DNA from: Massalongia carnosa
Taxonomy: Eukaryota
Length of the DNA: 64,000 nucleotides
Direction of reading: 5' to 3'
NCBI GenBank assembly: GCA_965645245.1
Contig: OZ287068.1
Span: 1,612,001-1,676,000, forward strand
Part shown: piece after piece, positions 19,634-55,544 of the stretch
Layout of the letters: each line of letters begins with the position of its first letter
How positions within the stretch are numbered: the stretch's first letter is position 1
Notes under the pieces: model-generated
The model's input: only the letters and a program-made list of their open reading frames with translations
Databases searched by the model: none
What the model was told of the DNA's origin: nothing
Made by a program: the position numbers and the translations under genes

Positions 19634-19984
19634 CATACTACCTGGTATTTTCGGTCACCGAAACACTTCGGTCACCGAATGTAATGCGGATGGCGCTAGA
19701 GGGATACGTGATCGCCTACAGCGGTTGCGGGATTAACTAGCATGAGCCAGGCCGTAGTACTTAGTCGTATAGCCGTCGAGGCTGACACGACGCCACCTTG
19801 TCATACAACTCCAAATTAGTTGTTACTACGTTCTAGACTGCTTACAGATCAAACACCTGTCGAGGCCGTAGTGGTAGATTACTATAGAGTAAGGCGAACT
19901 CCTGTGGAGACTAGCCGTGAACTCTATATGGAATCTACTGGCCTACTCGGAGCTACTCGACCTCTTGATACATCAAGAGTTAAA

Positions 19985-32889: not shown

Positions 32890-35873
32890 GGAGCTTCTAT
32901 ACCTCAGACGTTTTCTATTTTTCATACCACGTAGCTCCCGCAGCACCATTAGTCAGCCCCATTTGCTTACTTATATCACCTGGCTTATATTCAATGAACT
33001 TGGCTTATGTTCAATGAAAATACACTATTCAATCCCACATAAGTATAGTAAATTTCTCGCTGCTTAGATGAAAAAACCCCCCCCCCCGGTGCCAGCATAT
33101 AAAATTTCCTCCGGCGCCAACATAGAAAAATTACCCCCGGTGCCAACATAGAAAATTCCCCCCGGCGCAACATAGAAAACCCCCCCCTTAGTCATCATTT
33201 TCATCTCGTCGCCGCTTCCAAAACCCCCCCGTCGGCGCCTCATCTTTCAGCTCTTGCAAGGCCTCCTCCACCCCCTGTCTTCTGATTAGGCCAGTCAATT
33301 TCTCTAGCCAGCCAAGCTATCTCTCTATTTGAGGATTTCTTTCCTCAGCTGTCCAATCAGCGGTGTACTCCATAACTTCGTAGAATTTCTCTTTTATAGT
33401 GTCTAAAACCTCCCTCATCTGCAGCATATAAGGATCAGGTTCCTCGATATCTTCGTGACGTTCAATATTCAGTCTAGCCGACGTTTTATACACTTCAAAG
33501 CCGCTATCTTCAAATATCTCGGCCCAAGCCAACTAATCGGACTCCTGAAACGTCTCGAAAACGATGTGATAATGCCATAGATGCCTGCATGGAAGTTGAT
33601 ATTGTCGATAAAATAAACAATCTACAGGACATGTCAGCTCATCTGGCATTTCACCTGCCGGTGCTTCACCGTCTGCTAGGCTTTTAGCAGCTAGCTTCCA
33701 TTGATCAACTATAAGCTTTTGCACTGGAAAGGGAAATTTTCGTAGATGAGGGCATTCCTGGCATTCGGCCGTGCTAGTAGTACGAAAGCTAGCTTTTTTA
33801 GCGCGAGCTCTATTTTCCCATTGATCCCCTACGCGAATCACATGATTTGCAGCCCCCGTCAACGAAAAAGTCATGAAATCCGCTTTACCTATTATACTAA
33901 TTAATGTGGCGAATGAAGCTTCAAAAATATGACGATCTTACCATCTGCATGCTTTTTGATAGATGTATGCCAAGATTCAACCGGATTAGTGGTCATGCAT
34001 TGTATCAATAAGCATGAATGCTGACGGGCATAATTAGCCCATTGAGACTTAGTCAACATCCATTCTCGTTCTATATATTGACGTTTTTCTTCAGGGCTGC
34101 TTTTAAAGCTTTTTTGGTACTGTCATCGCATCCGAGCTCGGTTTTCCTGAAATATAGAGCATCATATAGATGCTTTCTGGCATTTTGACATCTGGCACCA
34201 CTAAGTTTTCGATTCAACGTACGCTCTGAATGGGTGCGACAAAGAAAATGTGAAACCTCCATCTCCCCTGCTATCAGGCCTTGAAAGGCAAGGCTGACGC
34301 CTCGTTGCTCGGCTGCAGAATCATCGGTGAGGATGTAACGAAGTCTCCATGCCCTAGACCATTGTTTGATTTTGTTATGATCTACCTAGAGACAAGTCAT
34401 AGGGACACTAGAAACGAATACAATCAAGATGAAGAAGGAAAAAGACAATCGACAACCAGAACCTGCCCCTATATATCCTCTACTGCGCTAGTACCCATGT
34501 GGTATAGTCGTCATGGAACTTTCTAGCAGCTGCGGGAACGAAATCGAAAGCGCCTGCGTGTTCCATCTACGATTGCCCTAGGCGGTGCCGAGTGCCGAGG
34601 TCGTGCCGTGTAGAATCGTGACAGATTTGACGAAGAAATTCTCCTATGATATCACCGTCTTCGTTGCTAGCTAGCATATGAGCTCCAGGAATCCAGCTTC
34701 CATATTCGTCGCGAATCATCAGGGTAAATAATTTCCATTTCAGATGATTAGTATTATGAGTGCTATCCATCAAAGTCAAATGACCACGTTTTATCAAAAT
34801 TTTCAATCTGGACCTTTTTGCAAATGCTATAGCGTATGATTTTTCTCCATCAACTGCACGACTTATTTTAAGCTTTGCAGCTAAAATATCTACGCCCAAT
34901 ACTTGCAAAGCATCAAAACAATCCTTCAATTGATCAACCCAGGCCTCTTTAGCCCCCAATACTCGTGCATCAGGATGCGCTCTTTTGAAATCAATACTAG
35001 CATTGTGAACGGCCTTGAGGTTAAAATCCGAGCCCCCTGCGTCTTTCAATGTTTCAGAATTTCCCAGCCATTTGATGCCTTGCATATTTCGATTGACCAC
35101 GGCCGGGGTGTATCCTTTTGCCACCTCTTTGCCTGCAGTGAGTTTTATTGCGGAGTTGATTTTGATACCATCTAAATATTCCAAAGTAGGATTGTGCTCC
35201 TGCTGATCAAGCTTTTTTTCTGCATATGCATATAACCTCACCGTTAGCAGATTATCTGCATCATCAAATGATTTCAAAATAGCTAATTTTTTGCTGCAGG
35301 AAGAAGTTATTCTTAGACGTTTAGCTCGAATTCCATGTCCCTCGGATTTTTTTTCGACGTCATTTTTCCATAGCCTACAGTACCAATAGGATTTTTGAAT
35401 CCGTTTCTTCGTCATCGCCCCTGTATAATTATGCACCCAGATGTTGTCCACAAACGGCCAGAATTGTGCATATTCATCAGCCGTCTAAATCAACTCTGCA
35501 TGCAGCTGAAATGCTTGCTGACGAATCAATAACGGATTGGGTGGAAGAGACAACAAGGTGGAAAGCGGAAGCGGAGCGGAGGAAGCTGGTCCTCGGGCAA
35601 CAGTCAGTTAACTGTTGACGTCTTGATTTACGGCGTCTTGACTATCAAGGTCGCTTTCGGGTTTGGTGGCATCGAAATATGAAGACATGTTGAATAACTT
35701 CATAGTTAGAGACAGCGAGGTATGATTATTGAAGACGGTGAGATAGGGGAGACGCGTCCCATGTTTACATCAATATTTAGTTTTAGCCCTTACGAGGTTA
35801 GGGGGCTGACTAATTATGCAGCGGGAGCTATGTGGTATGAAATTTAAAAAACGTCTGAGGTTTAGAAGTCCCC
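32890..35873 (-). mobile_element. Mutator-like element (MULE) inserted in the Gypsy RT
   Basis: ~70-bp imperfect TIRs; 8-10 bp TSD GATC(T/C)AGG(G); transposase fragments LMDSTHNTN, LTDDSAAE, HFLCRTH and SWIM CLFYRQYQLPCRH; host RT reads PLPLIQGLFD across the site. Confidence 0.9.
34334..34623. mobile_element. Probable solo LTR (290 bp) inside the MULE transposase
   Basis: TGTAACGA...TCGTGACA ends; interrupts the MULE domain; no matching TSD. Confidence 0.6.
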
Positions 35874-38800
35874 GATCCAGGGGCTGTTCGACATCGTCAG
35901 CGGGTCGGCTATCTACACCAAGTTGGATTTGAGGGACGCATACAACACCTTCCGAATCGCCGCCGGGGACGAATGGAAGTCGGCCTTCAGATGTAGATAT
36001 GGCCATTTTGAGTATAGAGTTATGCCCTTCGGACTGGTCAATGCCCCCGCCTCCTTTCAAGCGTTCAGTCACGAGGTGTTGAAAGAGAATCTCGACCAGT
36101 TCGTAGTAGTATATCTTGACGACATCCTCATCTTCTCCAAGACGGAAGAGGAGCATTCGGGCCACGTTCGATGGGTTCTGGATCAATTGCGGAAATGGAA
36201 ACTACACGCAAATTTATCGAAATGCATCTTCCACGCGTACGAGCTGGACTTCCTGGGCTACATACTCTCCCGAAAAGGCATCGCCATGGACCCAGGACGA
36301 ATTTTTACGGTGACGCAATGGCCGGAGCCGAAATCACATCGAGAAGTTCAAGTCTTTCTTGGATTCGCCAACTTCTATAGACGCTTCATCAAAGGATTCT
36401 CGCGCATAGTGGCGCCAATCACTTCCTTGCTGAAAGGTGGGGACAAAGGCCGTTTCCGGGGGAAGTTCGTGTGGACGGACAAGGCAAAGGGGGCTTTTGA
36501 GGCGTTAAAAATCGCGTTCACTAGCGCCCCAATGTTGCTGCATTTCGATCCTGCAAGGCGTATTAAGCTCGAGACGGATGCGTCAGATTTCGCCCTATCA
36601 GGAATCCTCAGTCAACTAGTCGAAGAAACGGGCCAATGGCACCCGATCGCCTTCTGGTCCCGGAAAATGACCCCTGCAGAAATCAATTATGGGGTCGGGG
36701 AGAAGGAAATGTTAGCAATCGTGGAAGCGTGCAAAAATTGGAGACACTATCTTGAAGGGGCAAACTTCCCCGTCAAAGTGCTCACCGATCATGGAAACCT
36801 TCGCACCTTTTTCACAACCAAAACACTATCTAGACGCGAAGCGCGTTGGTGGGAAAGACTATCCAGTCTAGACCTACAGCTCGAGTACAGACCTGGTCGG
36901 AATAATCCGGCAGATGGACCCTCGCGACGCCCGGACTACGCAGGGCCAGGCTTGCATCGTCAAGACGAGGCCACACTGCTGGGTCAGGGGGTTGTCGGGG
37001 GGGAAAGCGAGGTATATCAAACGAGAGCCTACGCATTAGTTTCTTCAGATGAAGTCGGTCAAGGGCCGAAGGAATCCTTCGTCTTCAACAATACTCCACC
37101 GGAGACGCGCACGGAATCCTCAATTGCTGTCGTAGGGATGGATACCACCCCGAATGCTGCACGGGCGTCGGATCCTGATATCCAGGCGGCAATGAGAAGG
37201 ACCAAGGGGGGGAAGAAAAAGGGCAAAAAGCCTGCCCCTCCGAAGTCAGACGAGACCGCGGCTGACTCCAAGCCTGTGGGATTCCGACTCGTCGAGGCCG
37301 AGAGGGACTCGGACACATTAAGCCAGCGCGTCCTAGACGTGACTGAGTCGGAAGCTGCCTTTGCATCGCCCCCCTTGGAACTCAGCACCGTCCTTCGTAT
37401 TCTTCAAGAGACTGATCACCTTGCGAAGCGAAGACGGCCCCTCGCCGCATCGTCGTTGCAGGGAGAGCTGGATCAGGAAAGGGACGGTCAGAGGCAGCCC
37501 ACCGAGGGAACGGAGGGGGTCGCAGGAGACGACCTTCCTGCCGACGAGAAAGAAGACGGGCTCTGGCATCTCAAAGATGACATCCTCTGTCGAAATAACA
37601 GGTGGTATATACCGCCTGGATTGCTGAGAAACGAACTGCTAAAAAGGAATCATGATGATCCAAGCGCAGAGCATTTCGGTACCCTCAGAACGACAGAACT
37701 TCTCCAACGAAAATACTACTGGCCCCGAATGGTCCCTGATGTCAAGCACTACGTTGATACCTGTACTCGCTGTCATCAAGTCAAGGCAGTCAGGCATAGA
37801 CCATTCGGCGAATTAGAATCCTTGCCAGTACCTCTGGGTCCAAGACAGAATTGGACACTAGATTTCATTACGGATTTGCCCCCGAGCATCCGCCGCACCC
37901 TTATTTTTGATGCAATACTAGTAATTGTTGACAGGTATACAAAGTACGCCCGATACATCGCGGCCAGGAAAGACTGGACGGCGGAGAACCTTGCCGACGC
38001 CCTGGTAGAAGAAGTCTTCACCCGCTTTGGAATGCCGGTCTCGCTGGTGACCAACAGGGGAAGCCTGTTCACCTCGAATTTCTGGTCCAACTTCTGCTAT
38101 CATCTGAGGGTACGGCTCAATTACAGTACGGCCTTTCACCCCCAGACCGACGGGCAAACGGAACGTCAAAACCAGACGTTGGAACAGTACCTTCGTTGCT
38201 ACGTCAATTATCAACAAGACGACTGGGTGTACTGGCTACCGATGGCAGAATACGCCTACAACAACAGTCGGCATAGCGTACTGAAAATGTCCCCATTCGA
38301 GGCCCTTTTCGGAGAGGCACCGAGGTGGGAGGAGGAAATAACGGAAACCGAAAAGGAAACGCCAGCAGCGAAAGACAGGGCGATAGAAACGCTCGAAAGA
38401 GACGTCGTCTCGAAACTCTGCTGCAAAAAGCATCATCAGATCAAGCTAAGTACTACAATCAGAAGCACACCCCGATGACCTATCGGGTCAAGGACAAGGT
38501 ACTACTTAATGCTAAAAACATCTCATCTACTAGGCCTTCAAAGAAACTGGACTATAAATACTACGGTCCTTATGAGATAACCAAGGTTATAGGAAAGCAA
38601 ACGTATCGTCTGAAACTACCGCCGCTACTAAAAGGCGTCCACGACGTCTTTCACGTCAACCTTCTAGAACCATACAATGAAGACCCAGCAAGAGGTCCTG
38701 AGCTCCCCCCGGCCATCGAGGTCAACGGCGAGGAGCAATACGAGGTGGAGGAGGTACTGAGCAGTCGAATCCGATACGGGAAACTGCAATATCTGGTCAA

Positions 38801-39164
38801 ATGGAAAGGATATCCGGATTCGGACAATCAATGGCTGTCATTAGAAGACATGGAAGGGTCACAAGACCTAATTAGGATTTATCATCGGACATACCCATCG
38901 AACCCGTCGAAAAGCGGGGAAAAGAGAAGAAAGATAAGCAAATAGATCTTTTCCCATACCGGGCATGCGAAAAATATAATCTTATCTTATCGACCTAAGA
39001 CACAGTTAAGTAAACAGCTTTGATTATTGCTAAAAAGAAAGCTAGCTACCCCTCATGATCCGACACCTGATCCTCACCCTCCGGGACGGTCACGGGAAGC
39101 CCCTTTTCCCACCGAAGTAGGGCGTCGGTCTCAAAGGCCTGCCGTCGGATCTGCGCAAGGGCAT

Positions 39165-39605
39165 CTAGTCCCTCCACGCTGTCGGTTTTCAAGGCCTTGG
39201 CACGGGCGCGCTCCCAAATGGCCACACGGGCGACATATCGCTCATGCTTGGCAGCGAGAGCAGCGAACCGGGCCCGATTTGGGGTCGGCAGGTTGTTGAT
39301 GGCGGTTGCCTCTTACAGCAACCGAAGGACCGTCCGCCGAAAAGGAACTGGGATCGGGCGACAAACCTCCTTTCGACGAATGCAATCAGCGCACTTCCCC
39401 GAGGCTGGTTATCGGTGGAGCAGTTGAAATTAAGTTCAGGATTGTGTTGGGAACACCGATGGCAGAGAGAAGCCTCCGAGGTGGGGCCGACCCATTTGGG
39501 AGGCACTCGCACCGCTGCAGCAGGGGGAGGAAAGTCGGGCAAATGGACATCGTACGCTCGGGGTGGCCGACGGCGACTGGCGGCGGGGGGTGGTACATCA
39601 GACAT
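39165..39605 (-). pseudogene. Antisense accessory ORF in Gypsy 3' region with six-cysteine cluster
   Basis: ATG at 39603-05; CHRC-x10-C, then after a 1-nt shift in a G run KCADCIRRKEVC; 3' end uncertain. Confidence 0.55.
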
Positions 39606-39824
39606 AATTGGGAAATTGGAGGATTGAACTGATGAAAAGTAAGTCATGGATTGGGGACTACTGAGGGGAGATAGACAGGCCAAGTGGCTATTTATGCTCG
39701 AATTACTGGCATTACGAGGGCATCCGACAACAAAGAATATCACCAACAACGAAAAGAAGATATCACGTGAGTCGAAGCCTCCTGCGACATGAGCCCTAGG
39801 GGGAGGATAATGTCAGGACCTGCC

Positions 39825-41148
39825 CACGCGGGTGACAAAATAAATTGCAACGTGTAAGCGAATTTACCCCTGAATGCCCCATTAAAACACCCTCCTTTTT
39901 TTCAACTTTTTATCTCATCATCAATGTCTCGACCCAAAAAGCCTCATTATGATACTCCCACAAAGGCCAAAGTTCAAGGAGCTTATCAATTTCTCATCTC
40001 ACATGCAATTCCATTCGATCCACGGGCCATTTTTCAGGAATTTGGCGTGGCCGAGCGCGCGGGCTATAACATCATCAAAAGCGGAGCTTCTTCTCGCACA
40101 CGTCACAATTCTTCTCTCGTTGAGACTCGGGGTCGAAAGCGAAAGATTAGTGATGATCAGCTGAAGGAGGCAGATCACATTCTGCAGGATCAAGATCTAC
40201 AATTGGAAGGAAAACGCTACACATGGGATGCTTTAGCACAGGAGATTGGGGCCGACGTGATGGGACGTACAATGAAGAGAACTCTTACAGCTGCCTTGAA
40301 TTATCACAAATGTCTAGCCTGTGTCAAAGGGTGGCTGGCAATGGCATCAGAAGAAAGAAGAGAAGAATTTGCTAGAGTTATGTTAAATAAATATCCTCGG
40401 TCCGAAGACTGGCATCGCGTACGATTCAGCGATGAGATTCATTTTGGCTACGGGCCTGAAGGACAGTTACGAATCATTCGTAAGCCCGGAACAAGATATC
40501 GTTGGGATTGTATTCAGCATCGTGATGCACCACCTGAGAAAGATCGTAAAAGAAAGCACTGCTGGGCAGCAGTTGGTTACAATTTCAAGTCGGATATCTA
40601 CTTCTACGATGTGCCCAGCAATAGCAATGGAAAAATGACTCATCAGGTGTATATTGACGCTATTCTTGATCCCGTCGTCAAGCCCTGGTTGGAGCGTGGA
40701 GATGACTTCGTAATTGAAGAAGATGGAGACTCTGGTCATGGCACGGGCAAGAGACGAAACGCGGTCAAAAAGTGGAAGTTAGATCACGATTTAGAGCACT
40801 ATTTCAATTGTTCTTCATCTCCTGATCTAGCTCCCATTGAAAATTGCTGGCAGCCCGCAAAGCAGCATGTTCGTAAATTTCCTCATTGGGACGATGCAAG
40901 TTTGGAGCAGCTGATTAGGGAGGGATGGGCTCGAGTCAGTCAGGAATTTATCAATGAAAGGGTGTTATCCATGCCCAAAAGATTGAAAGAGGTGAAAGAT
41001 GCAAAGGGGGCGATGACTAGTTATTGATCTCATGTAATTTAGATGAATTTTATCAGCTATGCAGATGATGGTTGATGATGAGATGAAAATTTGAATAAAA
41101 AAGGGGTAAATTCGCTTACACGTTGCAATTTATTTTGTCACCCGCGTG
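39825..41148 (+). mobile_element. Tc1-like DD38E transposon with intact 367-aa transposase (39924-41027)
   Basis: Perfect ~46-bp TIRs CACGCGGGTGACAAAATAAATTGCAACGTGTAAGCGAATTTACCCC; FSDE...EEDGD...SPDLAPIE. Confidence 0.95.
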
Positions 41149-41399
41149 ACACCATACATAATTTTTTCGGCACGCCCAACGAGAAAGGCGATTAGTTAGC
41201 TACGACGACGAGTACGTGGGAGAGTATGAGGAAGAATCACATTTTGTTCGCCGCTCACAATCTGGAACTGCTTTACTGCGATCTAGGCAAGCAAAAGAAG
41301 CTGAAGAAATTTACCTGCGGGCACTGGAAGAATATTAAAAGCTTGGTTCTTGAGCATAAGCCGCTTTTGGTCACCAGCACTAACACCTCTTCCTTCTTC

Positions 41400-42200
41400 T
41401 CCGTCTCTTAAAGAGCTAGCTGGACTCTGTTCCACCCTTGGACATCGGAAACGATTCACCAGCTCCCGAGCATGCTCCAAATCATCCTCAGGCACCCTCA
41501 TCGAAAATCCACATCACTTCGTATTTCCCGTATTTTTGTTGACGTCTCCCTTGCGTTTCCTGGCTCTCTTGCGCAAGATGTCCACAACCTTCCATTCCTT
41601 CACCTCTTCTGACACTATTGTGTTCGCTTGAGGTGTTGACTGCGTAAGAGAAGGCAGTCCGATTTCAATGTAGTTGCGATGAGTAATACTCTCTAAGCTA
41701 TTTCGGCCGCCGATGCTGATCTCACATCGATTTTTGTCGATATAAGGCTCCGAGATGTCAGTTGTAATGTAGATTTCAGTAGACCCACCCGAAGATTCGT
41801 CCACATAGTTCTTGCTAGCGCTGTTGAAAATTGCAAGAAACATTTGCATTTGCATTTTCATGTTTTCGAAAACTACCACCTAGATTAGCCTCTTCCCGTC
41901 TATAGCCGCAATGAGAGGATAATGGCCGACTTCCCTTCACCCATATTGAGCTGCATGATCGAATTTCATGCCAGACGAGGGTTTCATCATCTTTAGAGCA
42001 ATTCGAGCTTGTACTGAGCGAATCAACATATTGTTTTCAATTTCGAGAAGCAACCAATTCGGATACTGCATCGAATCCCATCAGTCACGGCCCAGGTCTT
42101 TAAGCTCACGCAGCAATTTTATAGCGTTTCAGTTACATTCAACGATGCACTCGGCACGTTTTAGAACGAACATTGCCATTTTGTATTCAACAAAAAGACG
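41400..42200 (-). pseudogene. Degenerate DUF3638-like P-loop protein fragment followed by a chromodomain-like remnant
   Basis: YPNWLLLEIENNMLIR...NSIMQLNMGEGKS...DGKRLI*VVV across frameshifts; EWKVVDILRKR...YEVMW...VPEDDLEHARELVNRF. Confidence 0.55.
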
Positions 42201-42926
42201 TCTTCAATCGCTGTATAAGGCAGATATTCTGTCCCGGGCTAGGTAGTGAAGGATTGAAGTTAGTGACAGGCGGGCCAAAATTCTGCTTCATATACCAAAT
42301 TGACATATGTTGGACATTCTGCTCGGAGGTGGTGATAGATCGTGCGGTATACCTCGTCCGCTTAGTTGTTACATTGCCTTAAGTGCTTTCCTAGCAGCAG
42401 CAATAGAGCTACGGCGATCCCTTGAGTTTTAAAAATGTATCTCCATGAAGCGAGTCGAAACTATCCCGCATATCATTGATGTAATGCTGCTCGTACCCGT
42501 CAAAGGGTTTGAATAAAATATGCGTCAAGAAAGACCTGAGCTTATCATAATGCCTCTGGCCTTCACGCTACTCAATAATCTAGGAGTGAAGATTATTTAA
42601 ATTTAGATAAAGGAATCCTAAGCCGACTTGCCTGTGATATCATCATGAGGATATCAGCATGCAAATATGTGGCTGAATACCCGATGAATGGCTCGTGAGC
42701 GGTGCAGACGACAAAGTCAAGAATCCACCAACTCCTTGAAGCAACTGAATCATGATTGGTGATAAATACTCCAGCGGATGTTTTATTCAGAATATCAAGA
42801 GGTCTTATTGATGGTTCATTTTTAATATGAATAGAAAAAATGAACATTGCTAAAGTTGGCGGACTCTATCCAAATGCATAAGGATAAGATAAGAGCCTTC
42901 TCTAACGAACATAAACTCCAGTCTCG

Positions 42927-44716
42927 TCAGGCTGACTTTGCCAATTCTGAATGCTCTTCGGCTTGAATCCGCATTTCGTACGCCAGCTCAAAGCACTCTG
43001 CCAGCAAGGCATTTACAATTCCTTGACCTTCAGGAATTTCGGACCCAAACAAGAACTTGCCGTCAACTCTCATGTTGTCAATGGAATTAAGCTGATTTCG
43101 TCAGTTGTGAGCTTTAGTGCAGTGAGAGTCTTCATTTTGCGTAATGGTTTAACTCGCCTTCATGCTATAGGGGTAAAGCTCCCTCGATGATGAAACACCG
43201 CCCGAACGTTTAACCTCGAGAAGACACCGCCGAAGTGTTTGGAGTTGATTAAACACTGGTAGAAGAGCTTCTGAAACAGGCTCCGAAGATATTAACAGGC
43301 CATAAATGTAGGCGTAACTGCGTCGGAGGAGATACAGCAACGTCTAACCCCATTAATTAGTTTAAAAATGCCCAGTCCTGAAGGCAATACTGTCTGTCTG
43401 TCATACTCTCTGCGCATGAATATCAGCCTTATTTCCACGGGCATCTTCAAAATTGCCGAGAACTCGAGAATCATCGATTGTGTCAAGCTGACATTGATAG
43501 TTATACAAATCGGTCTTACGTAAAGACCAAGCCTGGGTTAGGGAAAGTCTTTCAAGTTTATTCCGAATATCGTATAGTTTATCATATGTGCTTTGAAATC
43601 TTTCGTCTATCATACCTTGCCTAGAAGCAGCGATGAGCCGAGACAGCTTCTACTTTTGGCGCCCAAAAGCCGAACCTTGTCAAAACGATTTCAACCCACT
43701 TCAGACAGCGATGAAGAAGCTCCCCAACAATATCCTGGCCTGCCGGGATTGGTGTGTCGCTAGCCAAAAACATGCCATTGACAGCGGTGCCTTGGATTTC
43801 CTTGAGTTGATCCTTGAGCCCTTGAACTTCTGATGTCGGAAACTGCACCTCAAGTTCAGTAAGCTTTCGTCTTCGTACTGAGAGCTATACTTAACCTTTT
43901 GTCGTGTATTTGCGGCAGAAATAGACCGTAGGATCGACACGAGTCTCTCATGGATGGGGGTGAGTTCGGGGGATAGGTCTGCAAGCGAGCTTTGCAACCC
44001 ATCGAGGATGAGGCGGCAAGTCTTCAATCGATTCTCCAGCAGCGTCAACAAATAGTGAGAAGATCTTTCTTTTCCGCGATCCAAGGTTTGTTGCATGGAA
44101 TCTAGAGTATTACGACCTGACTCGAGATCTTTCCCAGAATAGAATGAGGCTTCTTTCAGATGGTCTAAAAGACGCTGAGCAGACTTAGCACTTAACCGCC
44201 ATCTATAGCCTTGCGAAGATTCCTACTCTAAGTGTCGACGTTATTGAGTAACTAAATGAAAAGTACGTTGTCAATTTGAAACGTTCAGGCTTCTCTCAAG
44301 TTTGGTTATACTAACACTGCAGGAGCTTCCTTATTGCGTCCAATAGTCAAGTAAAAGAGAGAAATGAGCTGAAAACAGTCTTCTAATACTTTGTCCGCTA
44401 GAATAGCCTTCTTCAGCAATAGCTCAATATTGGGAGGGACATGCATGCTAGCATCATCAGACTGGCATCGATTCCAAAAGCTATACGAACATTTTTTCTG
44501 TTCCAATGGCTTGCCGTGCTCCTTGCGTAAAGTTTTAAGGAGATTGACTTGTGCAATGACTTGGTCATATAAACAAAGCACATCTTCGGATTTAACATAA
44601 GTCGACTTATTATCCTGCGTTAATTGTAACAAACTATCTTTAACCTGGAGAAGTCGGTCGAATATGAGTTGTTCTGTTGTATCGAAGGGGGCCTGGAGAG
44701 CAAGGATTTCGCTCAT
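42927..44716 (-). CDS. DUF2408/UPF0662 family protein (Cub1/YPL260W-like), about 8 exons
   Basis: STYVKSEDV, DCFQLISLFYLTIGRNKEAPA, LTQAWSLRKTDLY, SSEPVSEALLPVFNQLQTLRRCL, RELYPYSMK|LNSIDNMRVDGKF; typical fungal introns. Confidence 0.85.
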
Positions 44717-44979
44717 GATAAGCCAAGCCTCTTTAGCTGCAATGAACCGTCGCAGTGATAGGTATAGTGTGAAAGGGTGAAGCCACCACCCAACACATAA
44801 TTATCCCCGCGGAGGTTCGGCCCTAGGTTCCGTTAGCACATTAGGTACGTACTAAGAACTTTAAGCGAAACTCTTGAATCACACATTCATTCTCAAAAAT
44901 CAAAATCGACCCTATCAGTCGTCGCAATTCCAAATCCGCACATTTTATTTAAAGATACTGTCCTAGTACGATTGCAAAT

Positions 44980-45506
44980 ATGTCTAGATCTGAGCTTGCT
45001 GTGTCATATGCCGCTCTTGTGCTCGCCGACGAAGACATTGACCCTACCGTAAGTGGTGATGTTATGGGATCATGGAACTTACTGACTTAGTCGCAACATT
45101 CAAGCCAGACAAGCTCCAAACCATTATCAAAGCTGCGAATGTTGATGATGTCGAGCCAATATGGGCAACGTTATTTGCAAAGGTACGCAGATACGTTGTT
45201 ATACGTCAATTGAGTTGAAAAACTATTATACCCCAAACACCAACCAATATGCTAGGCACTCGAAGGCAAAAATGTCAAGGACCTGCTATTGAATGTTGGT
45301 TCCGGAGGAGGTGCAGCCGCAGTCCCTGGCGGAGGAGCGGCTGGAGGAACTGCGGCCGATGCACCAGCCGAAGAGGAGAAAAAGGAGGAGAAAGAAGAAG
45401 GTATGTAAAGCCATGCTCAAAAGCTAGGTAGTTCAAACTAATAACCTATCTTCCCATAGAGAAAGAAGAGTCGGATGAAGATATGGGCTTTGGACTTTTC
45501 GATTAG
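44980..45506 (+). CDS. RPP1: 60S acidic ribosomal protein P1 (4 exons)
   Basis: [17 protein letters not shown]...[22 protein letters not shown]...[13 protein letters not shown]. Confidence 0.95.
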
Positions 45507-46678
45507 AAGTCAAATCATTATTTTTTCCTTGTGGGATCCATACCTCTACCTAAATCTAAGCAATTGGAAGGGTAGATCAAGTTTGTTTGTCATCTCCATG
45601 ATCGTCCTCCTCTTCAGCTCTACTTCTAAGAAAATCGCAAAACCAGCTCTCTGATTAGGTGTGTTGCTCAGAGCTGCCTACATACTTTAAGGTAGGCAAA
45701 CGCCGACGCGAGAGTGAACATTGTTCTTGAATTTGAATGAGTGCAACATCGTGAGCCTACATCTAGATACCCTTGGTAACGTCAATCTCATTCAACTATT
45801 GTCTTCAATCGCATGAATAATGAGTAAATATTATAGCGAGTCTCCAAATGGGACCTGTTCCCCTCTTTGATAGCGAAGAATAATTCTTTTAATTTAAGGA
45901 CAATTCACAGGCTAATTTTACATATTCAAGAACCAACTTCAGATCGCAAGTTTCGGCATCCCTATCTATGCATTCATTCATTGGTAGATCCAACATTAAT
46001 CAATAATCAAACATATTAAGGGAGGCGCGATGCACAAGTAAAAAAGGGGAAAGGGTACTGAGTAACCCGCTCCCATGGATTCTACCAACTTTGACCTTTG
46101 GACATCTCGTTATCTGATAAGGTTTCCTGCATTCACATTAGTTCCAAATTCTGGATTGTATCAACAAGGAATACTTTCAAAATGCTTGTAACTAGTTCTT
46201 CAAAACTTTAGGAATCCGTAGACAAAAAGACTTTTATGAAATTCGCATTAAGGATAAATTTTCCGGTTATCGTTTATTTTCTTTTTCCGCTTTTTCTGCA
46301 TAATTAGTACTAATATCACCGTTGTCCCGTTTGGAAGGAATTTTTATGTAAATGTGGCAATAAATCTATTTTCGTCCTTGTCACACCTTATCCCTTGACA
46401 CATGTTACCTTACCTATTGTGCCCTACCCTCTCCTCTTCTCTTCTTCGAGTTCGAGTCAACACTGATAACAGAAACTTTGTGTTGTCCTTTCAGTCGTTA
46501 CCTGTTAATCTCATCTTTCTCACTCGCTCAATTCTTTACATTTTTCACCTCGGACCTCCTTTACGATCTTCCCTCCGTGCCGTGCATTGTCTACAGTGCA
46601 GAGTATTAGAAAACAACCGTCTATAGCATTGGAAAATAACCGAAGTCTTTTATTTCTTTCTCGGGCGCTCCAGTTACA

Positions 46679-47596
46679 ATGAAAAAGTTTTCATGTCTGA
46701 GCAACATATCGCTCTTGCTTCTCATAGTTCTCCCCGGGGGGTATGGAACGAATGTAGACAGGGCGCTTCAATACCGGCAGAATGTTCCCAAAGGCACAGG
46801 GTCCTCCGCAAGTTCTGCTGCCCAATCTTCGACTGCTTCGGCCGCTTTGACAGTCTCGAGCGCCCCTACGGTCTCAGACACATCATCACCATCACCATCA
46901 TCAACAAACATTGACACCCAAACACCCTTAACATCGTCCTCGGCTGCTTCGGACTCAACGGAGGAAAACCCTACAAGTACCTTACTTCCGGTGTCAACAC
47001 CCCCGTCACAGTCATCATCTTCTCCCGAACAGCCTACCACCACTAGCTTTGGCTCCAATACGCCTTCGCAACCATCGGTACCACCCACAAGCTCCTCGGT
47101 ATCCGTAGGCAAATCATCGGCCAACCGGGAACCTTCTGCTCTTACCACACCCAGAGCCACCATCAGCAAGACGCAGAAAGTTATTACGACGGAGGTTTTC
47201 ATCAGCGGAAGCGTTACACAAACCAGTGTCTTTACTACGAGCGAATTACAAGCAGTCTCCAACCCGGCTTCATCCGCCACCAGCCCTCCAACCCTCGATG
47301 CATCAAGTAGCGGCTCCAATAGCTCCGTTCTCAAACAGTCCCAGAAAAGAGTAATAGTTGGGGTTATCGTGGGCATCGGAGGCGCCATCCTACTGGGCGG
47401 TATCGCGGTGGTGGTGTGGAGAATCTGGGGCAAACGGAAACATACCGCGGAAGAAGATCATGAGCTGATGGATTCCCAGCCGGGATCGTCAGGCCTGGAG
47501 AAAAGGAGCAGTGTGAGCGGCAACAGTCCTTTCCGATCCACACTGGACCAATACCACAACCCGGCTGGACCGGTCAACACCGCTTCAAATTTCTAG
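46679..47596 (+). CDS. Ser/Thr-rich single-pass membrane protein (Mid2-like topology)
   Basis: Signal-like N-terminus, S/T/P-rich ectodomain, TM VIVGVIVGIGGAILLGGIAVVVW then RIWGKRK, tail ending PVNTASNF. Confidence 0.85.
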   Translation: MKKFSCLSNISLLLLIVLPGGYGTNVDRALQYRQNVPKGTGSSASSAAQSSTASAALTVSSAPTVSDTSSPSPSSTNIDTQTPLTSSSAASDSTEENPTSTLLPVSTPPSQSSSSPEQPTTTSFGSNTPSQPSVPPTSSSVSVGKSSANREPSALTTPRATISKTQKVITTEVFISGSVTQTSVFTTSELQAVSNPASSATSPPTLDASSSGSNSSVLKQSQKRVIVGVIVGIGGAILLGGIAVVVWRIWGKRKHTAEEDHELMDSQPGSSGLEKRSSVSGNSPFRSTLDQYHNPAGPVNTASNF

Positions 47597-47906
47597 TCGG
47601 CGACCGTTTCATGCAGGAGTTTGAGGAGACACTAAGCCCTTTCGTGTAGCAAGCTGCAGGGGTTTTCGGGGATAGAATGGTGTAAATAGTCATGAGTTCA
47701 ATTAATTGCATTGGGGCAAACGTGATCTACGCCTCCTTCTTCTTCTTCTTAAGCATGCATGCATGACCCCAAATTGTACACCGCCGGTGTTTTGCCGATT
47801 ACAAATATTGTAGTCATACGTGCTCGAGATGAAATTCTCCACGAAGAACTGTTATGCATTACTTTCGCCACTCTCGTAGAAAAGGAAGAGCGGTTGCACA
47901 CGCTAG

Positions 47907-49884
47907 CACGCGGGTGACAAAAAAAATTTTTACTCACAAATTTTGACCCCACCACGCCCCTGAAAAAAAAACTGGCAACGTGTAGGCGACTTTACCCCAT
48001 TAAAATTCCCCCCTTTTCATCAACCATCCACACCAACATGCCTCGTAAGCAACGTGCAACTCACTACGATACTCCCATTCGAGCTAAACTTCAAGGAATT
48101 CATGAATATCTTCTTGATGAAGGCATCGTACATGATCCACGAAATCTTTTCAAGAAGTATGGCGTTTCGGAACGAGCTGGCTACAGAATTATTCGCAAAG
48201 GAGCTTCGACACGTACTCGTCATCATACAGAGCTTATAGAAACGCGAGGAAGACGATCAAAAATCACAGGTGAGCAAGTACGAGAGGCTGATCGGCTGCT
48301 TCAGGAAGATGAGCTACAACTCGAAGGAAAACGCTTGACATGGGAACAAGTTGCGATGGAAGTTGGAGCAGATGTTGTGGGTCATACAATGCATAACGTG
48401 CTACGTGCTGCATTGAATTACGAGAAATGTCTAGCCTGCGTCAAAGGATGGCTGGCCGACCCTCCTATGCAAAAACGGGTGGAATATGCTCATATAATGC
48501 TGGCCAAATATCCTAAACTAGAAGATTGGTATCGAGTACGATTTAGTGACGAAGTTCATTTCTCCTACGGGCCCGAGGGCAAATTACGCATCATACGTCA
48601 GCCAGGCACACGCTATAGATGGGATTGTATACAACATCGTGATGCGCCAGCGGAGAAAGCTCGAAAGAGACTGCATTGTTGGGCGGCTGTAGGCTACAAC
48701 TTCAAGTCGGATATTATATTCTACGAAGTGCCGGGCAACAGCAATGGCAAGATGACGCATCAAGTATACATTAACTCAATACTTGAGCCCGTTGTCAAGC
48801 CGTGGCTAGAGCGAGGGGATGATTTTGTGCTCGAAGAAGATGGTGATTCCGGGCATGGCACAGGCAGGACGAGAAACGCAGTCAAGAAATGGAAGGAGGA
48901 TCATCGTTTAGAGCATTATTTCAACTGCTCTTCTTCACCTGATTTGGCTCCTATTGAAAACAGCTGGCAGCCCACAAAGCAGCATATTAAAAAGTATCCT
49001 CATTGGGACGAAGCGAGCTTGAAAGCATTGATTTGTGAGGGCTAGGCGACAGTCAGTCAGGAGTTTATTAATGAGAGAGTACGATCAATGCCTCAACGGC
49101 TAAATGACGTCATCTCAGCTGAGAGGGCCATGACTGGTCATTAATTTGATGTAAATAGCTTTCAATTGACTGGTTATCGCAATGTAAAGGTGAAATGTTG
49201 ATAAAAAGGGGTAAAATTTAGTGGGGTAAGCTCGCTTACACGTTGCCAGTTTTTTTTTCAAGGGCGTGCCCACCAAACCATCAAATTTTGACCCCTTTTC
49301 AACCACCACATTTTATACACCATCATTTAGCCATGAATAGAGCTACCACACCTGTTTTGGAGTCGCATGAGGCTCAGACCCATCATTCTACCCCCACACG
49401 GGCCAAAATTCAGGGTGCAGTGGAGTTTTGCGATGCGATGAAGATTCCTTATTTCAAAGAAGATGTTTTTCGTGTTTTCGGCACTTCAAAACAAACTGGC
49501 TGGAAAATATTGACACGAGAAAATTCCAGTCGTACTAGACACAATGCCGACATTCCTGAAACACGTGGACGTCATTCAATTGTGACCCCGTTCAATTGTG
49601 ACCCCGAGACACATACGAGAGATGGAGCGTATTTTGGAGACAGAAGGCATGGAGGCTCGCGGGTTAACGTGGGTTCAATTGGGCTACGAGGTGGGACTGG
49701 AGTGCAGTGGTCGTACAATTCAGAGAGTTATGGGTACAATGAATTATCATAAATGCATTGCATGTAGAAAGGGCTGGGTCAGCGAATCGACGGCTAAACG
49801 TCGTTTGAATGGGCTATCGTCATGAAAGAAAGATATCCTGATGATGAAGACCGGTTTTCTGTACGATTCAGCGATGAGGTGCAT
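47907..49884 (+). mobile_element. Outer Tc1-like element, 3'-truncated at the piggyBac junction
   Basis: Terminus CACGCGGGTGACAAAA; transposase fragments 49333-49884 (TPTRAK, ETRGR, YHKCIAC, VRFSDEVH). Confidence 0.85.
47953..49268 (+). mobile_element. Inner Tc1-like DD38E transposon; ORF from 48038 with a premature TAG at 49043-45
   Basis: TIRs CACGCCC(C/T)TGAAAAAAAAACTGGCAACGTGTA; flanked by CCCAC at 47948-52 and 49269-73; paralogous to 39924-41027. Confidence 0.92.
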
Positions 49885-49886
49885 TA

Positions 49887-52029
49887 TCCCTTCGTCTGGC
49901 AATTTGGCAGCCATTTAGGTAATATTCAATTTTACACGCGCCGTCTCCGGGTAATGACTAATAACTTTAATCTGGCCAATCAGATTTTCCCTTTTCAACG
50001 ATAATGGGTACAACACCTCAATCACCCCTCATGATCTATGTAAAATTTCCCAACATGCCTCCTTTTTGCAACATGGTCCACAGCTCTTACATTGCCATCT
50101 GGTCTGACTTGCACGTCGTCTTTGGGTGCAATTTTCATCAATTTCCGCAAGTGGTCGGCGTCGTTTGAGTCTTGGCACTTGCCTTTTGCAGGCCAAATAA
50201 TAGTCCTTCTTATTCAAATGCTCCCATTTGCAAGTTGACTCGACGTCTTTATTAAAGTCTTGATTAGTAGTAACTATGACATCTGTCGGACGTTTCCGTA
50301 GGGCACCGGCTTGATTAGATAGTAGGGCATTTACTATTTCTTTTTGAAAGTCCAAATGGCTGAGTGTTGAATTCGGATACAGAATTCTCCACAATTTGAA
50401 GGCATTTAGAACGGCTGCATCCAGAAGAAAGATGAAAATTGACCACCAGTAGCGACGATCAGATCTTTGAGGTGAATAATATGCTCTTTGCTGAGCATTC
50501 CCATCTGACCCGCCCATGTGCTGGTTATATTCCACGATGGGCATGGGAAATGGAAGCTTTTCTTCTTCATCATCAACGATGACTCTGGAATTTGCAGGAA
50601 TTCCATGACGTCGACGGGAATTCTTGTAGAAAGAAGTCTTCAAATCCTCAATTGTATGAACCGTGGTCATGAATTGCACGGTGTTTAAATCCACCCATGC
50701 CATACACAGAATGTCCCCGTCATCAATGTTTGATTTTTTACTTTTATTTGTAGGTGCCGTCATCAATGCCTTCTTTCCCCAGTCCTTATTCTTGGTGGCT
50801 GCAACCCTCAGACGTAGAAGATCAACAGGAAAACCGCATCCTGATTTAGCCGTCCCACAGGCACCAATTCCAATGGTTTTCAGAGCTTTGAATAGCTTCG
50901 TATTTGTGAAGAAGTTGTCCAGAAAGATGACGTATTTCAAGCCTTCATCAGACGGTAAACTTCGAGCCAGTTGAATGACGACTAGGGAGGAAGGAGACAA
51001 ATCCCATTTGGTTGTCGGAAATTTCAATTGTCCAGGCGTTTTTAACTCACTAATTTTGGACACCTGTCTTGCACTTAGTACGATGCAAATTGAGGCCTTT
51101 TCTACTCACCTTGGAGGTAAATAAGAAGTCAAAAAGATAATTTTCCTGACATAAACTATAGATTTTGAAGCCTACACCAGCCGCCTTGGTGGCTATTTGC
51201 ATAGTATGGCAGCTCCTACCCCTGAATAAAATCAATTGCTCGTCAACTGATACATGACTTCCAGGAATCCAGTATTTCTTTGATGCTTTTCGAAAGTCTG
51301 TGGCCAATGGTTCCAGCTTTTTCCACCAATCAGGGCCTCGAGTATCAATGATCTCATCTTCGTCGGGGTTGGATATCTTCAAAAATCGCTTGAGTTGCTC
51401 CCATCTTCGAAGACTCATGGCTTGAATCACCATGTCATGTATGGCAAATTTAGGAGACGTGTTCCAATAGTCAGTAAGACGTGGCATCAGTATATATCCC
51501 ATATATAACAGAATTCCCAGAAAAGCTCCTACTTCAGAAGAAGAGGTGTCATGCCATTGACGTCTCTTGATGTCGTTTAGGGCATACTTCTTTTTCGCTT
51601 TAAGATTGGTATTTTTAGCTATGATTTCAAGCATTTCAAAGCTAAAGAAGAGGCAGAATAAACTGAAAGGAGTCTGATTTATCAAGCGCAACGTCTCGTC
51701 CGGCTGTGGTTTTCGAAATGGGATCGAAATTGGACAATAATTTGATGACGGAGGGGGCATGGAGTCAATTATGCTTTGTACGCTGGGTTTATTCTTTTTG
51801 GCCTGTTCTTTCAGAATTGAGGGGGGCAAAGCGTCTGATTGGTCAGGAACTTCTATCTCAATGCCTCTCATGATTATTCTAAAGAAATTGTAGATGTTTT
51901 AATGATTTTCAACTGATGTTTACCTTCTTATTTACAAAAAAAGGGGAGAATGTTTTGAAGTTCGCGACTCAGCCCTACGGTATCTCACTAAGCCTATTTA
52001 AGGTGGCTGCCAAATTGCCAGACGAAGGA
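49887..52029 (-). mobile_element. piggyBac-like transposon with spliced, apparently open ~598-aa transposase (51871-51110 and 51063-50029)
   Basis: TIRs TCC(C)TTCGTCTGGCAATTTGGCAGCCA; SVDEQL, FLDNFFT, YNQHMGGSD motifs; 46-nt GT-AG intron 51064-51109; Cys-rich C-terminus. Confidence 0.92.
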
Positions 52030-52044
52030 TAGGCGTGACCCTGC

Positions 52045-55000
52045 AAAATCGTCACGCTGTATATGGACAATATCGCCCGTGACCAAGCTCCATACCACGA
52101 TTTTCTCTCCTCGACCCATTCAGTCGAACTGCAAAAAGCCTGCCTGTCCCCGTTTTGCGCCGCGAGCGACTTGCTGATCAACGAGCGTTCTACATACCAC
52201 GGATACCCTCTTTGACGGCCGCACGATGGACCCGGGCCCCTCCGCTGCAGGCCCCGCTGTCGCAGATCCGGAGACGGCGGCGCCTCTTTCTTGGTCTCCT
52301 CCTGAGGCTTACGTTGATGTCGAGGCCGTCAAGCGTGAGTCTCAGGCCTATGCCACCCACGGCAACAACGAGGCCGCCATGGCCGCCACCATGAGGCGCG
52401 TCCGCGGGATGCGGGAGGAGGATCGGAGGGCCAACACCCTTAAGACGTACCGCAGGTGCTGGCATCTGTGGGAGGTGACTACGATAGGTATGCCCTGCAA
52501 CTTTGGGCCTACGCTAACATCCTACAGAAGTGGTGCCGACGTCGCAATTTTCTTGACGGCGTCCTTGTGTGGGAGCGGAAGATGCTCCTCTTCCTCGAAG
52601 AGGTCGTCCTCCGCCTGCGCTTCGTCCCACGTCCCAAGCTCACAGGCGCAGCAGCGCAGGCCAGGCGGCGGGATCAGGATCGCCAACGGCAGGCTAAGCG
52701 CCGCGCGTTGAAGAGGGGGAAGGGGAAGGCGATGGAGGCGGTGGAAGCCTCGCCAGCGGTAGAGGGAGAGGAGGTGGAGGAGGTGGAAAAATTCGAGGAA
52801 TTCTCCGACGGCGAGGAGCTCGTTGAGACGGTGAGTCGGCCCCTGAACTCGAATTCAGGGATAGAATCATCTTTTTGTAGCTTACTGACTCGTCTTGCAG
52901 CAAGCCGACGACCCTTTATCCCGGCCCCTGGCGCCCGATAGCGTGGAATCGGGCTACGTCTCTGCCCTCTGCGCCCTCTTCGATGGCCAGCATCTTGAAG
53001 AGAATTTGGTGGTGCCCCATCCCAGAGGGAAAGCCACCAAAGCCCTGATGACGCGCTTACGCATCGATTGGAGCGCTTTCAAACGGGCCTCGTTCGAGGA
53101 TCGCGCGATCCACGGCCTCACCGACGGCTACACGATTGAGCAGGCCGCTCAATTTTCGGCAATGCTTCTCGCCGGGGGCAAGGTTTTGGGGGAGGAGGGC
53201 GTGGCGGGCGGCGAGTGGCACCTCCTGCGGACTAGCCTCGACTTCCTCCTAATGCATTCGATGATGCTGCGGGGGGAGTCAACGCGGAGGGCTGAGCTAT
53301 CTGACCTCTGCGCCTACGACCTCCCTAACGAGGGGTCCGAATGCCTTGCGTTGATCCTTCGAATTGGCTAGGGCAAGGGCATTCCTCTGGCGGACGGGGG
53401 CAACTCGCGCCGCCAGCATTACTATGGTGCTTTGCGGAGCAGAGATGTCGTCCTTTGTCCTCTCGGCGCCCTCGCCCACTGGCTCGTCTTGTGCTAGGAC
53501 CTCCTCCTGGAGAAGCGGCCGGACTTCCGGGATCGATCTTCGTGGTATTTCACGAAGGAAGGTCATCTCCGGGAGCCTGGCGCGATCTAAGGAGGAGATC
53601 TCCGACAAAACACAGGCCCGATGGATCAAGCCGGCTTTGGATGCTGTCGGCGTCGACAGCTCCAAGACGGTCCACACCATGCGGCAGTCCTCGTCACGGC
53701 TGGCCGATATGTGGGAGGTCCCCGCGGACCAGGTAAGTACTCTACGATTCATGGCCCCTTATACTTACTAGCGTTACCCTTATATCAACTACTACAGATC
53801 ATGAGAGCAGGCGGATGGGAACGTGGCGTCTGGGCCACTAACTACCTCACTCGCCTGCCGCGTGTCTACATGCGTCGCGCCGCCGGCTTTGGCAACTCCC
53901 CCGGGAGTTACTTTTTGAGAAGAGGACACTCACCGGATCTGGCCCTGCAGCGGCAGGTGTGGCCTTGGGTGGATGACGCTCTGGCGGCGTACAAAGGCGG
54001 TCTTTTTCCTGATGCGGATAAGGCAGGGAAGAAGGTTCTGGAGATGTTGCTGCGGCTGCGTTGTGTCTTCCTGCAAGACGCGGCGCTTCTACAGCCTCAG
54101 TTTCCTGAACTTTCGCTCTGGAGACACCAAGTCTTCAGAGATCCCCTTTGGCCTGCGTTCGCGGCGAAGATACGGGAGTTGGAGGCTGTAGAAAAGGAAC
54201 CTTTGCACGTGGCCATCCACGGCGTGCTGCCTCTTGTTGCTGACTCCGTTGATGGCGTCAGTAACAAGGTCAGCGGTGTTGCAATTAAGCAAGATCGCAC
54301 GCTCAACGCTGTGGAGAGGTTGCTCTCCGGGCAGAGCCAGCTGACGACCACCTTGAGTGCGCTGCCGGCGGCAAATGCCCAGGAGATAGCTCGAGTCCTG
54401 GGTTCGCAGCTCTCACAATTGCAGGCCACGGTCTCGACGCTGCTTCGATCCTTTCTGACGGTTCCTGTGGAGGCTGTTCGGAGGGACTGGCTGCTGGACG
54501 AGGCTTCTTGGCGAGGGCAGGCGACTGCTCTTGCGACGGCGGCGCACTCCGTTGGTGAAGAGCCTGCTGCGTCGGCGTCCTCGTACGTCGACGCAGTCGC
54601 TTCTCTCCTTCCTACACCTTCTGTCGTCCTCACTTCCGTCCCCGGAGAGACGTCTACGGGCTCTGCGCCCTGTGGCTCCCTCCCCCAAGAGGGGCCGCCT
54701 CAACGTCCTCTTGGCTGCCCGGCGGAGCCCATTCTCGGCGGCGTGACCTCGGCGGAGGCGGTGTTGGAGGACTTCGCGTTGGGGACGTTGGTGGAGGGGG
54801 TCCAGCGTGCATCTCTCGACGAGTTGGACCGCCTCTTTGGGGCTAAGTGGAGGTACACTCCTGCCCTGAGGCAGCGGTTCTACGTCAAGAGACGGATCCG
54901 TCGGTACCTTCAGGGGAAGGCGAATGAGCAGGGGAGGGATCCGTGGGATATTGCGCGGGAAGTTGACAGTTTGGGGCTCTCTGGACATCAGATCTCTAAG

Positions 55001-55544
55001 CGTATTGACGCTGGAGAGGATCTGCTTCGTAGATAGGCCAATGGTACCTCTCTTTCTCTCTACGAGTACTAGTCATGGAGGCCTGTAACACCGTTTCTAC
55101 TAAGAAGCGATCACTCGTAATTTTCCTGTAGTACCTCCTTCTCGTTCCTGTGACTGGGTGGGACATCTTGTGACGAGGCGTGCAATTGCACCACGTATCG
55201 CGCCATCAGCGCTACGTTAATTCTACTCGGGGTAAGATGTTTCTTCTATTCAGAAGAAGCTCTTTTCAGCAAACCCAGTTTCAAAATTCTAGCAAAACCC
55301 CTTTGTGGTTCGATTGCGAAGCGCAAATGTCGACCTTCGCAACGACCAGGGCCAAGCAGGGCGTCAGTTTTGCACGGCGATCCTACACTTCACAGCACAT
55401 CAAATCAGACAATTCAGGCGCGGGTCTACTCGTTGAAGGATGCTTTATTTGACGGTTTAAATTGCTTCAAAAAAAATTTTTTCTCGCTGCGCGAGACTAC
55501 AACTTCAGGTTACTAAGGCTATTTGGCGTGACAAGAAAAAATCG
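52045..55544 (+). mobile_element. Crypton (CryptonF-type) tyrosine-recombinase element; spliced CDS 52226-55036 with stops and a frameshift
   Basis: MMLRGE, CPLGALA, KTVHTMR, AGGW...NYLTRLP catalytic motifs; C-terminal GCR1_C-like LDRLFGAKWR...RFYVKRRI; GC-rich; boundaries inferred from AAAATCG direct repeats. Confidence 0.85.

Follow-up and report, generated by a model that had tools for sequence, protein, structure and literature searches.

A stretch of 64,000 nucleotides from Massalongia carnosa (assembly GCA_965645245.1, contig OZ287068.1, positions 1,612,001 to 1,676,000; hereafter the window, with coordinates counted from its first letter) contains three related transposons, E1, E2 and E3, which very probably belong to a cut-and-paste family of ascomycetes that combines a transposase of the Tc1/IS630-type fold with a 5-bp, non-TA target-site duplication. 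TA is absent from the boundaries of these elements, and 5 bp of target are duplicated when they insert. Members of the family are about 1.3 kb long and carry one gene, intronless or with a single intron, for a transposase of about 360 amino acids with a putative N-terminal helical DNA-binding region. A sequence-only reading of the window had picked out the three elements (39825-41148, 47907 onward and 47953-49268) by their common start, CACGC, had noted that none of their five visible ends abuts TA (flanks CTGCC, ACACC, GCTAG, CCCAC and CCCAC), and had proposed, from one clean CCCAC duplication at the inner element, a Tc1-fold lineage with altered target capture. The elements, the flanks and the duplication were found as described, and the proposal is borne out by an empty site and by the flanks of the wider family.

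Insertion outside TA with a 5-bp duplication

E2 (47953..49268, + strand) is a 1316-bp element of a sister family with CACGCCCC... ends, its inverted arms of 79 nt being 85% complementary, and it lies inside E3 between one copy of CCCAC at 47948..47952 and a second at 49269..49273. The first piece of E3 (47907..47947, +) is where the third related element (CACGCGGGTGAC...) starts, with GCTAG as its left flank and its first 16 bases shared with E1; the second piece (49274..49887, +) holds the 5' untranslated region and the N-terminal half of the transposase gene, through the first catalytic motif, VRFSDEVHY.

We compared contigs from four public runs with positions 39000-50000 of the window. 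Position 47947 is connected straight to 49269 in contigs of two runs, X3 at depth 844 and X6 at depth 21.5, which skip 1321 bases, the 1316 of E2 plus the 5 of one CCCAC. In other copies of the E3 family, then, the site is uninterrupted and CCCAC stands there only once. The exact position of the joint is uncertain over 7 letters, since E2 starts with CA and the right flank goes on with CA, and we place the boundary of E2 at CACG on the basis of inverted-repeat symmetry together with the family data.

Those data came from relatives of the E1 protein, which numbered 307 at E <= 0.001. The named ones are all from ascomycetes (Clathrospora, Bimuria, Pyrenophora, Botrytis and Pseudogymnoascus), and one cluster of 43 member sequences is 98% identical to E1. 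Forty-four relatives were aligned, and the alignment was then used to scan metagenome contigs, giving 590 pattern matches, 349 of them encoding a relative, of which the best 80 loci were retained. In 43 of the 80 an inverted-repeat alignment scoring at least 40 was present between the two sides of the gene; from these we excluded five as duplicates of the same insertion (L004, L040, L047, L061 and L065), three because the left tip was missing or incomplete (L005, L014 and L015) and four for a flank cut by the contig end (L013, L017, L029 and L043). A search with terminal motifs added two insertions, L075 (= L076), which is a 571-bp deletion derivative, and L078 (= L079), and the other 33 loci were without a recognisable pair of ends. 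The final set thus comprised 33 distinct metagenome insertions with both ends and flanks, which with E1 and E2 make 35 events. Apart from the deletion derivative, the elements range from 1254 to 1803 bp.

A perfect 5-bp direct repeat stands directly outside the conserved tips in 19 of the 35 events, and a repeat matching at 4 of 5 positions (CCACC/CCACT) in one more; TA on both sides was found in none of the 35. When the left flank of each event was paired with the right flank of another as a control, 9 of 1190 pairs matched perfectly, and comparison of the flanks at offsets of 1 to 7 gave 1, 0, 0, 0, 0, 0 and 0 matches. The repeats themselves are diverse: CCTGC and CCTAC occur twice each, and ACCCC, CGTGG, ACAAG, ACTGG, CCTGG, CCGAC, CTTGG, CCAAG, CTCGC, CCCGC, CCAGC, GGTGG, CCTTG, CCTAG and CCCAC once each. 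In 12 of the 19 repeat-bearing events the boundary was taken straight from the raw inverted-repeat alignment (shift 0). Tabulated across these further copies, the flanks showed neither TA on both sides nor an absence of the 5-bp pattern, in keeping with what had been proposed from the window.

The CACG termini by which the sequence-only reading had characterised these transposons describe the elements of the window, and fail as a mark of the family, in which CAAG, CTCC and CTCG tips also occur, each of the four kinds being accompanied by 5-bp duplications. In a transposase tree (family-internal, built with FastTree from query-anchored tblastn rows and rooted at the midpoint, branch support not being considered) elements with a 5-bp repeat fall in every major branch and include all four kinds of tip. 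Ends of the form CACG...CGTG would also be mimicked if the elements entered a palindromic CACGTG and duplicated 2 bp of it, CG; this model was rejected because the empty site contains no CACGTG and because members ending in CAAG, CTCC or CTCG still have 5-bp repeats.

From the 19 reconstructed sites we built a target logo in which the duplicated bases are positions 1-5. The consensus, AC|CCTRS|STA, is loose and GC-rich rather than fixed: A at position -2 (13/19), C at -1 (11/19), C at 1 and again at 2 (15/19 each), T at 3 (11/19), G or A at 4 (10/19 and 7/19), C or G at 5 (10/19 and 9/19), C or G at 6 (11/19 and 7/19), T at 7 (11/19) and A at 8 (15/19). Against background frequencies of 23-26% for each base, the binomial p at the strongest positions lies between 4e-5 and 5e-7. 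Pooling the sites with their reverse complements gives approximately TA-S-CCWGG-S-TA, which is palindromic, though imperfectly, about base 3, and a palindromic target is the outcome expected of a two-fold symmetric complex with a 5-bp stagger. The half-site recurs in one-sided flanks outside the logo set (tacCTAGG|, tacAGTGG| and tacCCACC|).

Several insertion sites (L010, L016, L039 and L078) lie in sequence rich in CCTAC/GTAGG, for example cctacCCTACctaagg, and the elements may favour some other repeat for landing.

The products suggest how such insertions might arise. The transposase would bind the subterminal part of the inverted repeats and then excise the element, after which a two-fold symmetric transpososome would join both 3' ends to target phosphates 5 bp apart. 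A 5-bp stagger would in this way replace the 2 bp of other Tc1/mariner elements, and gap repair would convert it into the 5-bp duplication. Bending of the target may be helped by the TA steps that flank it at -3/-2 and +7/+8.

The transposase and its known relatives

The transposase is Tc1/IS630-like, with a DDE catalytic domain. DDE_3, the sole Pfam family found in E1 (E 8.9e-10, 39 bits, above the cut-off of 28.6), is present in E2 as well, and the NCBIfam model transpos_IS630 aligns with residues 34-338 of E1 (E 7e-17), its 61.8 bits falling below the cut-off of 100. When a profile of the family was compared with solved structures, the catalytic domain of Sleeping Beauty (SB100X) was matched at E 7e-19 and Mos1 at 0.25. 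An AlphaFold model made from the family alignment (mean predicted local distance difference test score, pLDDT, 79.7) had as its top Foldseek match the Sleeping Beauty catalytic domain (5cr4_A, E 9.1e-11, 27% identity, target template-modelling score 0.75), followed by full-length Mos1 complexes. The full-length Mos1 chains align with the model over 364-373 columns, at a root-mean-square deviation of about 13. The N-terminal region of E1 has no Pfam match, many homologues have a precomputed match to PF01498, and in the model the E1 N-terminus forms two helical bundles, residues 13-51 and 77-125.

Among the 44 aligned sequences D267 and E306 (E1 numbering) are invariant and D170 nearly so. The 38 residues counted earlier between the second D and the E are correct for E1, from D267 in EEDGD to E306 in PIEN. 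Across the family, however, the count is 37 for 22 sequences, 38 for 15, 39 for 1, 40 for 4 and 41 for 2, and never 34; the label DD38E accordingly fits E1 and is not diagnostic of the family. A single transposase gene between terminal inverted repeats is the layout of the elements with both ends. In the CAAG-tipped subfamily (L034, L041, L055 and relatives) the 360 residues of the protein match are spread over about 1200 bp and the frame changes along the way, pointing to a short intron within the gene.

Tc1 and Sleeping Beauty are among the closest known systems. Like them, the present elements are about 1.3 kb long with inverted terminal repeats and one transposase of about 360 amino acids bearing a DDE triad, and the Sleeping Beauty catalytic domain is the best match among solved structures in both sequence and fold. 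Unlike them, they do not target TA, they duplicate 5 GC-rich bases rather than 2, the D-to-E spacing is 37-41 rather than 34, and the tips are CACG, CAAG or CTCC in place of the CAGT that terminates Tc1 elements. The bacterial IS630 elements, whose model aligns over most of the E1 protein at a score below the family cut-off, duplicate TA. Zator elements have a TP36-like transposase and a 3-bp duplication, compared with the 5 bp of the present family.

Transib ends begin with CAC, and the sequence-only reading had drawn a comparison with that superfamily. The 5-bp duplication is indeed common to both (PMC1131882); beyond it the likeness is one of analogy, the transposases being unrelated. The 367-residue protein of E1 has the DDE_3 domain and the Tc1 fold, with Sleeping Beauty and Mos1 as its closest structures and no RAG1-core-like transposase such as characterises Transib, and many members of the family end in CAAG, CTCC or CTCG.

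The classical fungal Tc1 element impala of Fusarium, which has the miniature derivatives known as mimp, resembles the present family in fungal host, size and layout, and impala itself duplicates TA. In one survey impala is counted among DD34E/Tc1 elements (PMC7731502). By eye, the published pattern of mimp ends (PMC5579170) fits 13 of 16 positions of the L008 tip and 11 of 16 of that of E1, the misfits including tip positions 3-5; the comparison hints that the present family might be a relative of impala with a changed tip and target. Fot and Fot-like fungal elements of the pogo superfamily, which are reported to make TAA and TAAA duplications as well as TA (PMC7386202), show that the length of the duplication can change within the IS630-Tc1-mariner group. 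Their duplications, unlike those described here, are of 2-4 bp and still contain TA, and their transposases are of the DDD pogo type and about 500 amino acids long or longer. Intruder (DD38E) has the same 38-residue spacing as E1, a number without weight in a family that ranges from 37 to 41; it is reported from animals only, in a search that included fungi, and stands among the TA-duplicating Tc1/mariner families (PMC7731502). Fungal DD37E elements have been found only in Mucoromycotina, with none in Dikarya (PMC5630946). The 'Tc1-mariner' elements of Sclerotinia and Paracoccidioides differ in kind, with TA duplications and much longer transposases (453-574 amino acids in Sclerotinia; DDD-type and mostly about 460-560 in Paracoccidioides).

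A rival account, under which none of this would be new, is that the family has already been recorded together with its 5-bp duplication, perhaps among the 'Mariner/Tc1' ascomycete entries of Repbase or Dfam. Many sequenced ascomycetes, the named hosts included, contain homologues, and they are organisms whose repeats have been curated by others, and we regard this as a serious, if minority, possibility. Against it, the full-text literature yielded no Tc1-like family whose duplication is of 5 bp or other than TA, Repbase, Dfam and the supplementary tables of surveys lying outside that search; a 2026 survey of fungal elements treats duplication of TA as a trait of the superfamily that does not vary among its fungal members (PMC13469147), and another lists only TA, TAA and TAAA (PMC7386202). 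The name 'TcMar-Sagan' turned up in repeat tables only.

TA targeting is treated as a signature of the IS630-Tc1-mariner group, and TAA and TAAA are the only published departures that we found. We are evenly divided on the broader interpretation, namely that in an ascomycete Tc1-like clade strand transfer changed from a 2-bp TA stagger to a 5-bp stagger at AC|CCTRS|STA with the Tc1 fold kept, that the clade appears active in lichen-associated fungi, and that, if undescribed, it is the first member of the IS630-Tc1-mariner group not needing TA. Were this correct, the clade would amount to an experiment of nature on the way in which a DDE transposase fixes its stagger and target, and might supply vectors of the Sleeping Beauty kind that integrate with another profile. 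Independently of that reading, a family with the Tc1 fold that duplicates 5 GC-rich bases shows that stagger and target choice can be rewired within this fold, and comparison of close relatives becomes a way to test what determines the stagger. Where annotation pipelines demand TA at Tc1/mariner boundaries, they would be expected to mis-delimit or misclassify such elements. As a tool for gene transfer, too, a Sleeping Beauty relative that is active and independent of TA would be attractive.

Exceptions to the 5-bp pattern and the flanks of E1

Several observations weigh against a uniform 5-bp duplication and have to be set beside the 19 clean cases. Of its source genome the analysis covered the window, and there the duplication at E2 is the only one visible. 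In 7 of the 19 repeat-bearing events (L007, L008, L039, L045, L046, L075 and L078) the boundary was set by the conserved tip of the family, because the flank by chance extended the palindrome or the tip had mutated. Sixteen of the 35 events are without a perfect 5-bp repeat, 12 of them without a repeat of any length. L032 has a 7-bp repeat, CCCAGGT, at conserved boundaries, L021 has a 6-bp repeat, GCCGCC, and in L012 the repeat GACCC is displaced by 2 bp, with two additional bases (CA) before the left end. L044 and L073, whose flanks differ, share TGG|CAAGCGG...CCGCTTG|GCA with no repeat at the usual boundary, a 5-bp repeat, TGGCA, emerging only if both ends are shifted 2 bp inward.

A rival reading is that the stagger is not fixed, so that duplications vary (5 to 7 bp, or none) or have lengths specific to subfamilies, with 5 bp merely the commonest. 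L032, L021 and the offset of L012 speak for such variation, as does the CAAGGYCTGGCC subclade (L027, L032 and L038), in which none of three two-flank events has the 5-bp repeat. On the other hand, the 19 clean cases are all of exactly 5 bp and are spread over every major branch, matches of 6 and 7 bp can result from a 5-bp duplication with chance identity of adjacent bases, and the repeat of L021 sits within a GCC repeat. On balance we think variable staggering unlikely and a fixed 5-bp stagger the better account. The events without a repeat are likely to reflect recombination between copies, or assemblers joining the flanks of different 1.3-kb copies, and L044 and L073 may go back to a single old insertion within a larger repeat whose copies have since diverged. 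Eight distant loci (L051, L054, L066, L023, L019, L006, L022 and L062) were inspected for ends of the TA type; degeneration of these copies, or their truncation at contig ends, left no convincing ends to be found.

Among the events without a repeat is E1, the intact element of the window. E1 (39825..41148, +) is a complete Tc1-like element of 1324 bp whose terminal arms, 39825..39871 (+) and 41102..41148 (-), are 47 nt long and 100% complementary. The left arm holds the subterminal motif GCAACGTGTAAGCGA, also present in E2, and GCAACGTGTARGCGA is found as an exact subterminal motif in both ends of E1 and of E2. Exact matches to the 16-mer CACGCGGGTGACAAAA lie at 39825 (+), 41148 (-) and 47907 (+), three against a mean of 0.46 in shuffles. 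Between the arms an intact open reading frame (ORF) at 39924..41027 (+) encodes the transposase with its catalytic triad D170, D267 and E306. Given its perfect ends, its intact ORF and the cluster of near-identical relatives noted above, E1 looks competent for transposition, and the family is probably still active.

The flanks of E1, CTGCC on the left and ACACC on the right, show no duplication. Its left boundary is fixed at 39825 by contigs of X3, X6 and X7, which carry the left flank and depart after 39824 with ATAGAGACTACGGA(GA) instead of E1. The left flank is the multi-copy tail of a Ty3/Gypsy-type retroelement and the right flank is single-copy; word depth in X3, which in run contigs is not copy number, is 1963-2630 at 39000-39733 versus 142 at 41202-47807. 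Since the two flanks thus differ in origin, E1 probably lacks a duplication for that reason, and recombination between two copies, or a deletion, is most likely the simplest account of them.

Alternatively, E1 may have inserted without any duplication, either because the family is able to do so or in a one-ended or aberrant event, the flanks never having been rearranged. That 12 of 35 events lack a repeat would accord with this. A simple insertion, however, should have the same context on both sides, and the left flank of E1 is multi-copy and continues differently elsewhere, the right being single-copy; moreover, each flank alone fits the half-site pattern (gacCTGCC| on the left and |ACACCata on the right, that is, gAC|CTGCC and ACACC|aTA). 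We judge insertion without duplication to be unlikely, and prefer later rearrangement of the E1 flanks.

Finally, that these are ordinary TA-duplicating Tc1/mariner elements, with CCCAC at E2 coincidental or the ends misplaced, may be set aside as vanishingly improbable, for although E1, the best-preserved copy of the window, is without any repeat, and the E2 repeat lengthens to CCCACCA, 7 letters, once the opening two bases of the element are included, so that as a lone case its boundary would be ambiguous, TA flanks both sides in no event, perfect repeats at the conserved tip far exceed the control, the 47947-to-49269 joint contradicts such a reading, and the left boundary of E1 is fixed independently by the departing contigs.

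Remnants of E2 and E3 and neighbouring mobile elements

The transposase ORF of E2 (48038..49045, +; DDE_3, E 1e-09) is shortened by a TAG at 49043-49045 that stands where relatives encode Trp, and contigs of X3 and X6 have G at 49044, which gives TGG. The second piece of E3 differs from the X3 and X6 contigs by 16 additional bases at 49575, by eye a tandem repeat of GTTCAATTGTGACCCC, and by a T missing after 49803; both differences shift the reading frame. E3 ends abruptly after 49887, where other copies continue with AGCTATGGGCC..., and no second E3-type end was found elsewhere in the window, the remainder of the element lying outside it.

E3 is truncated by a piggyBac-like element (49888..52029, -) with DDE_Tnp_1_7 in ORFs 50029-51063 and 51050-51871. 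At the point of its insertion other E3 copies read ...CATTAT|AGCTATGG. Part of a second piggyBac-like copy lies inverted at about 1968-2713, 97-99% alike over 224-461 nt, and the three visible outward flanks of these copies are ATAA, ATAG and ATAC, not TTAA. On the other side, the retroelement that adjoins E1 is a Ty3/Gypsy-type remnant (36022..39824, +) with a pol ORF at 36022-38478 containing RVT_1, RT_RNaseH and rve.

The window is rich in further mobile elements (7729-13171, 21337-25329 and 31832-35415), among them an ORF pair like that of long interspersed nuclear elements (endonuclease, then reverse transcriptase/RNase H), a minus-strand Ty3/Gypsy-type pol, a gag-protease fragment and a fragment of a Mutator-like element (MULE) transposase. 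Long inverted repeats pair 5646-6678 with 19982-21014. An ORF at 53621-55036 has NDC10_II and GCR1_C domains, a pair that also occurs in tyrosine-recombinase (Crypton-type) elements of fungi.

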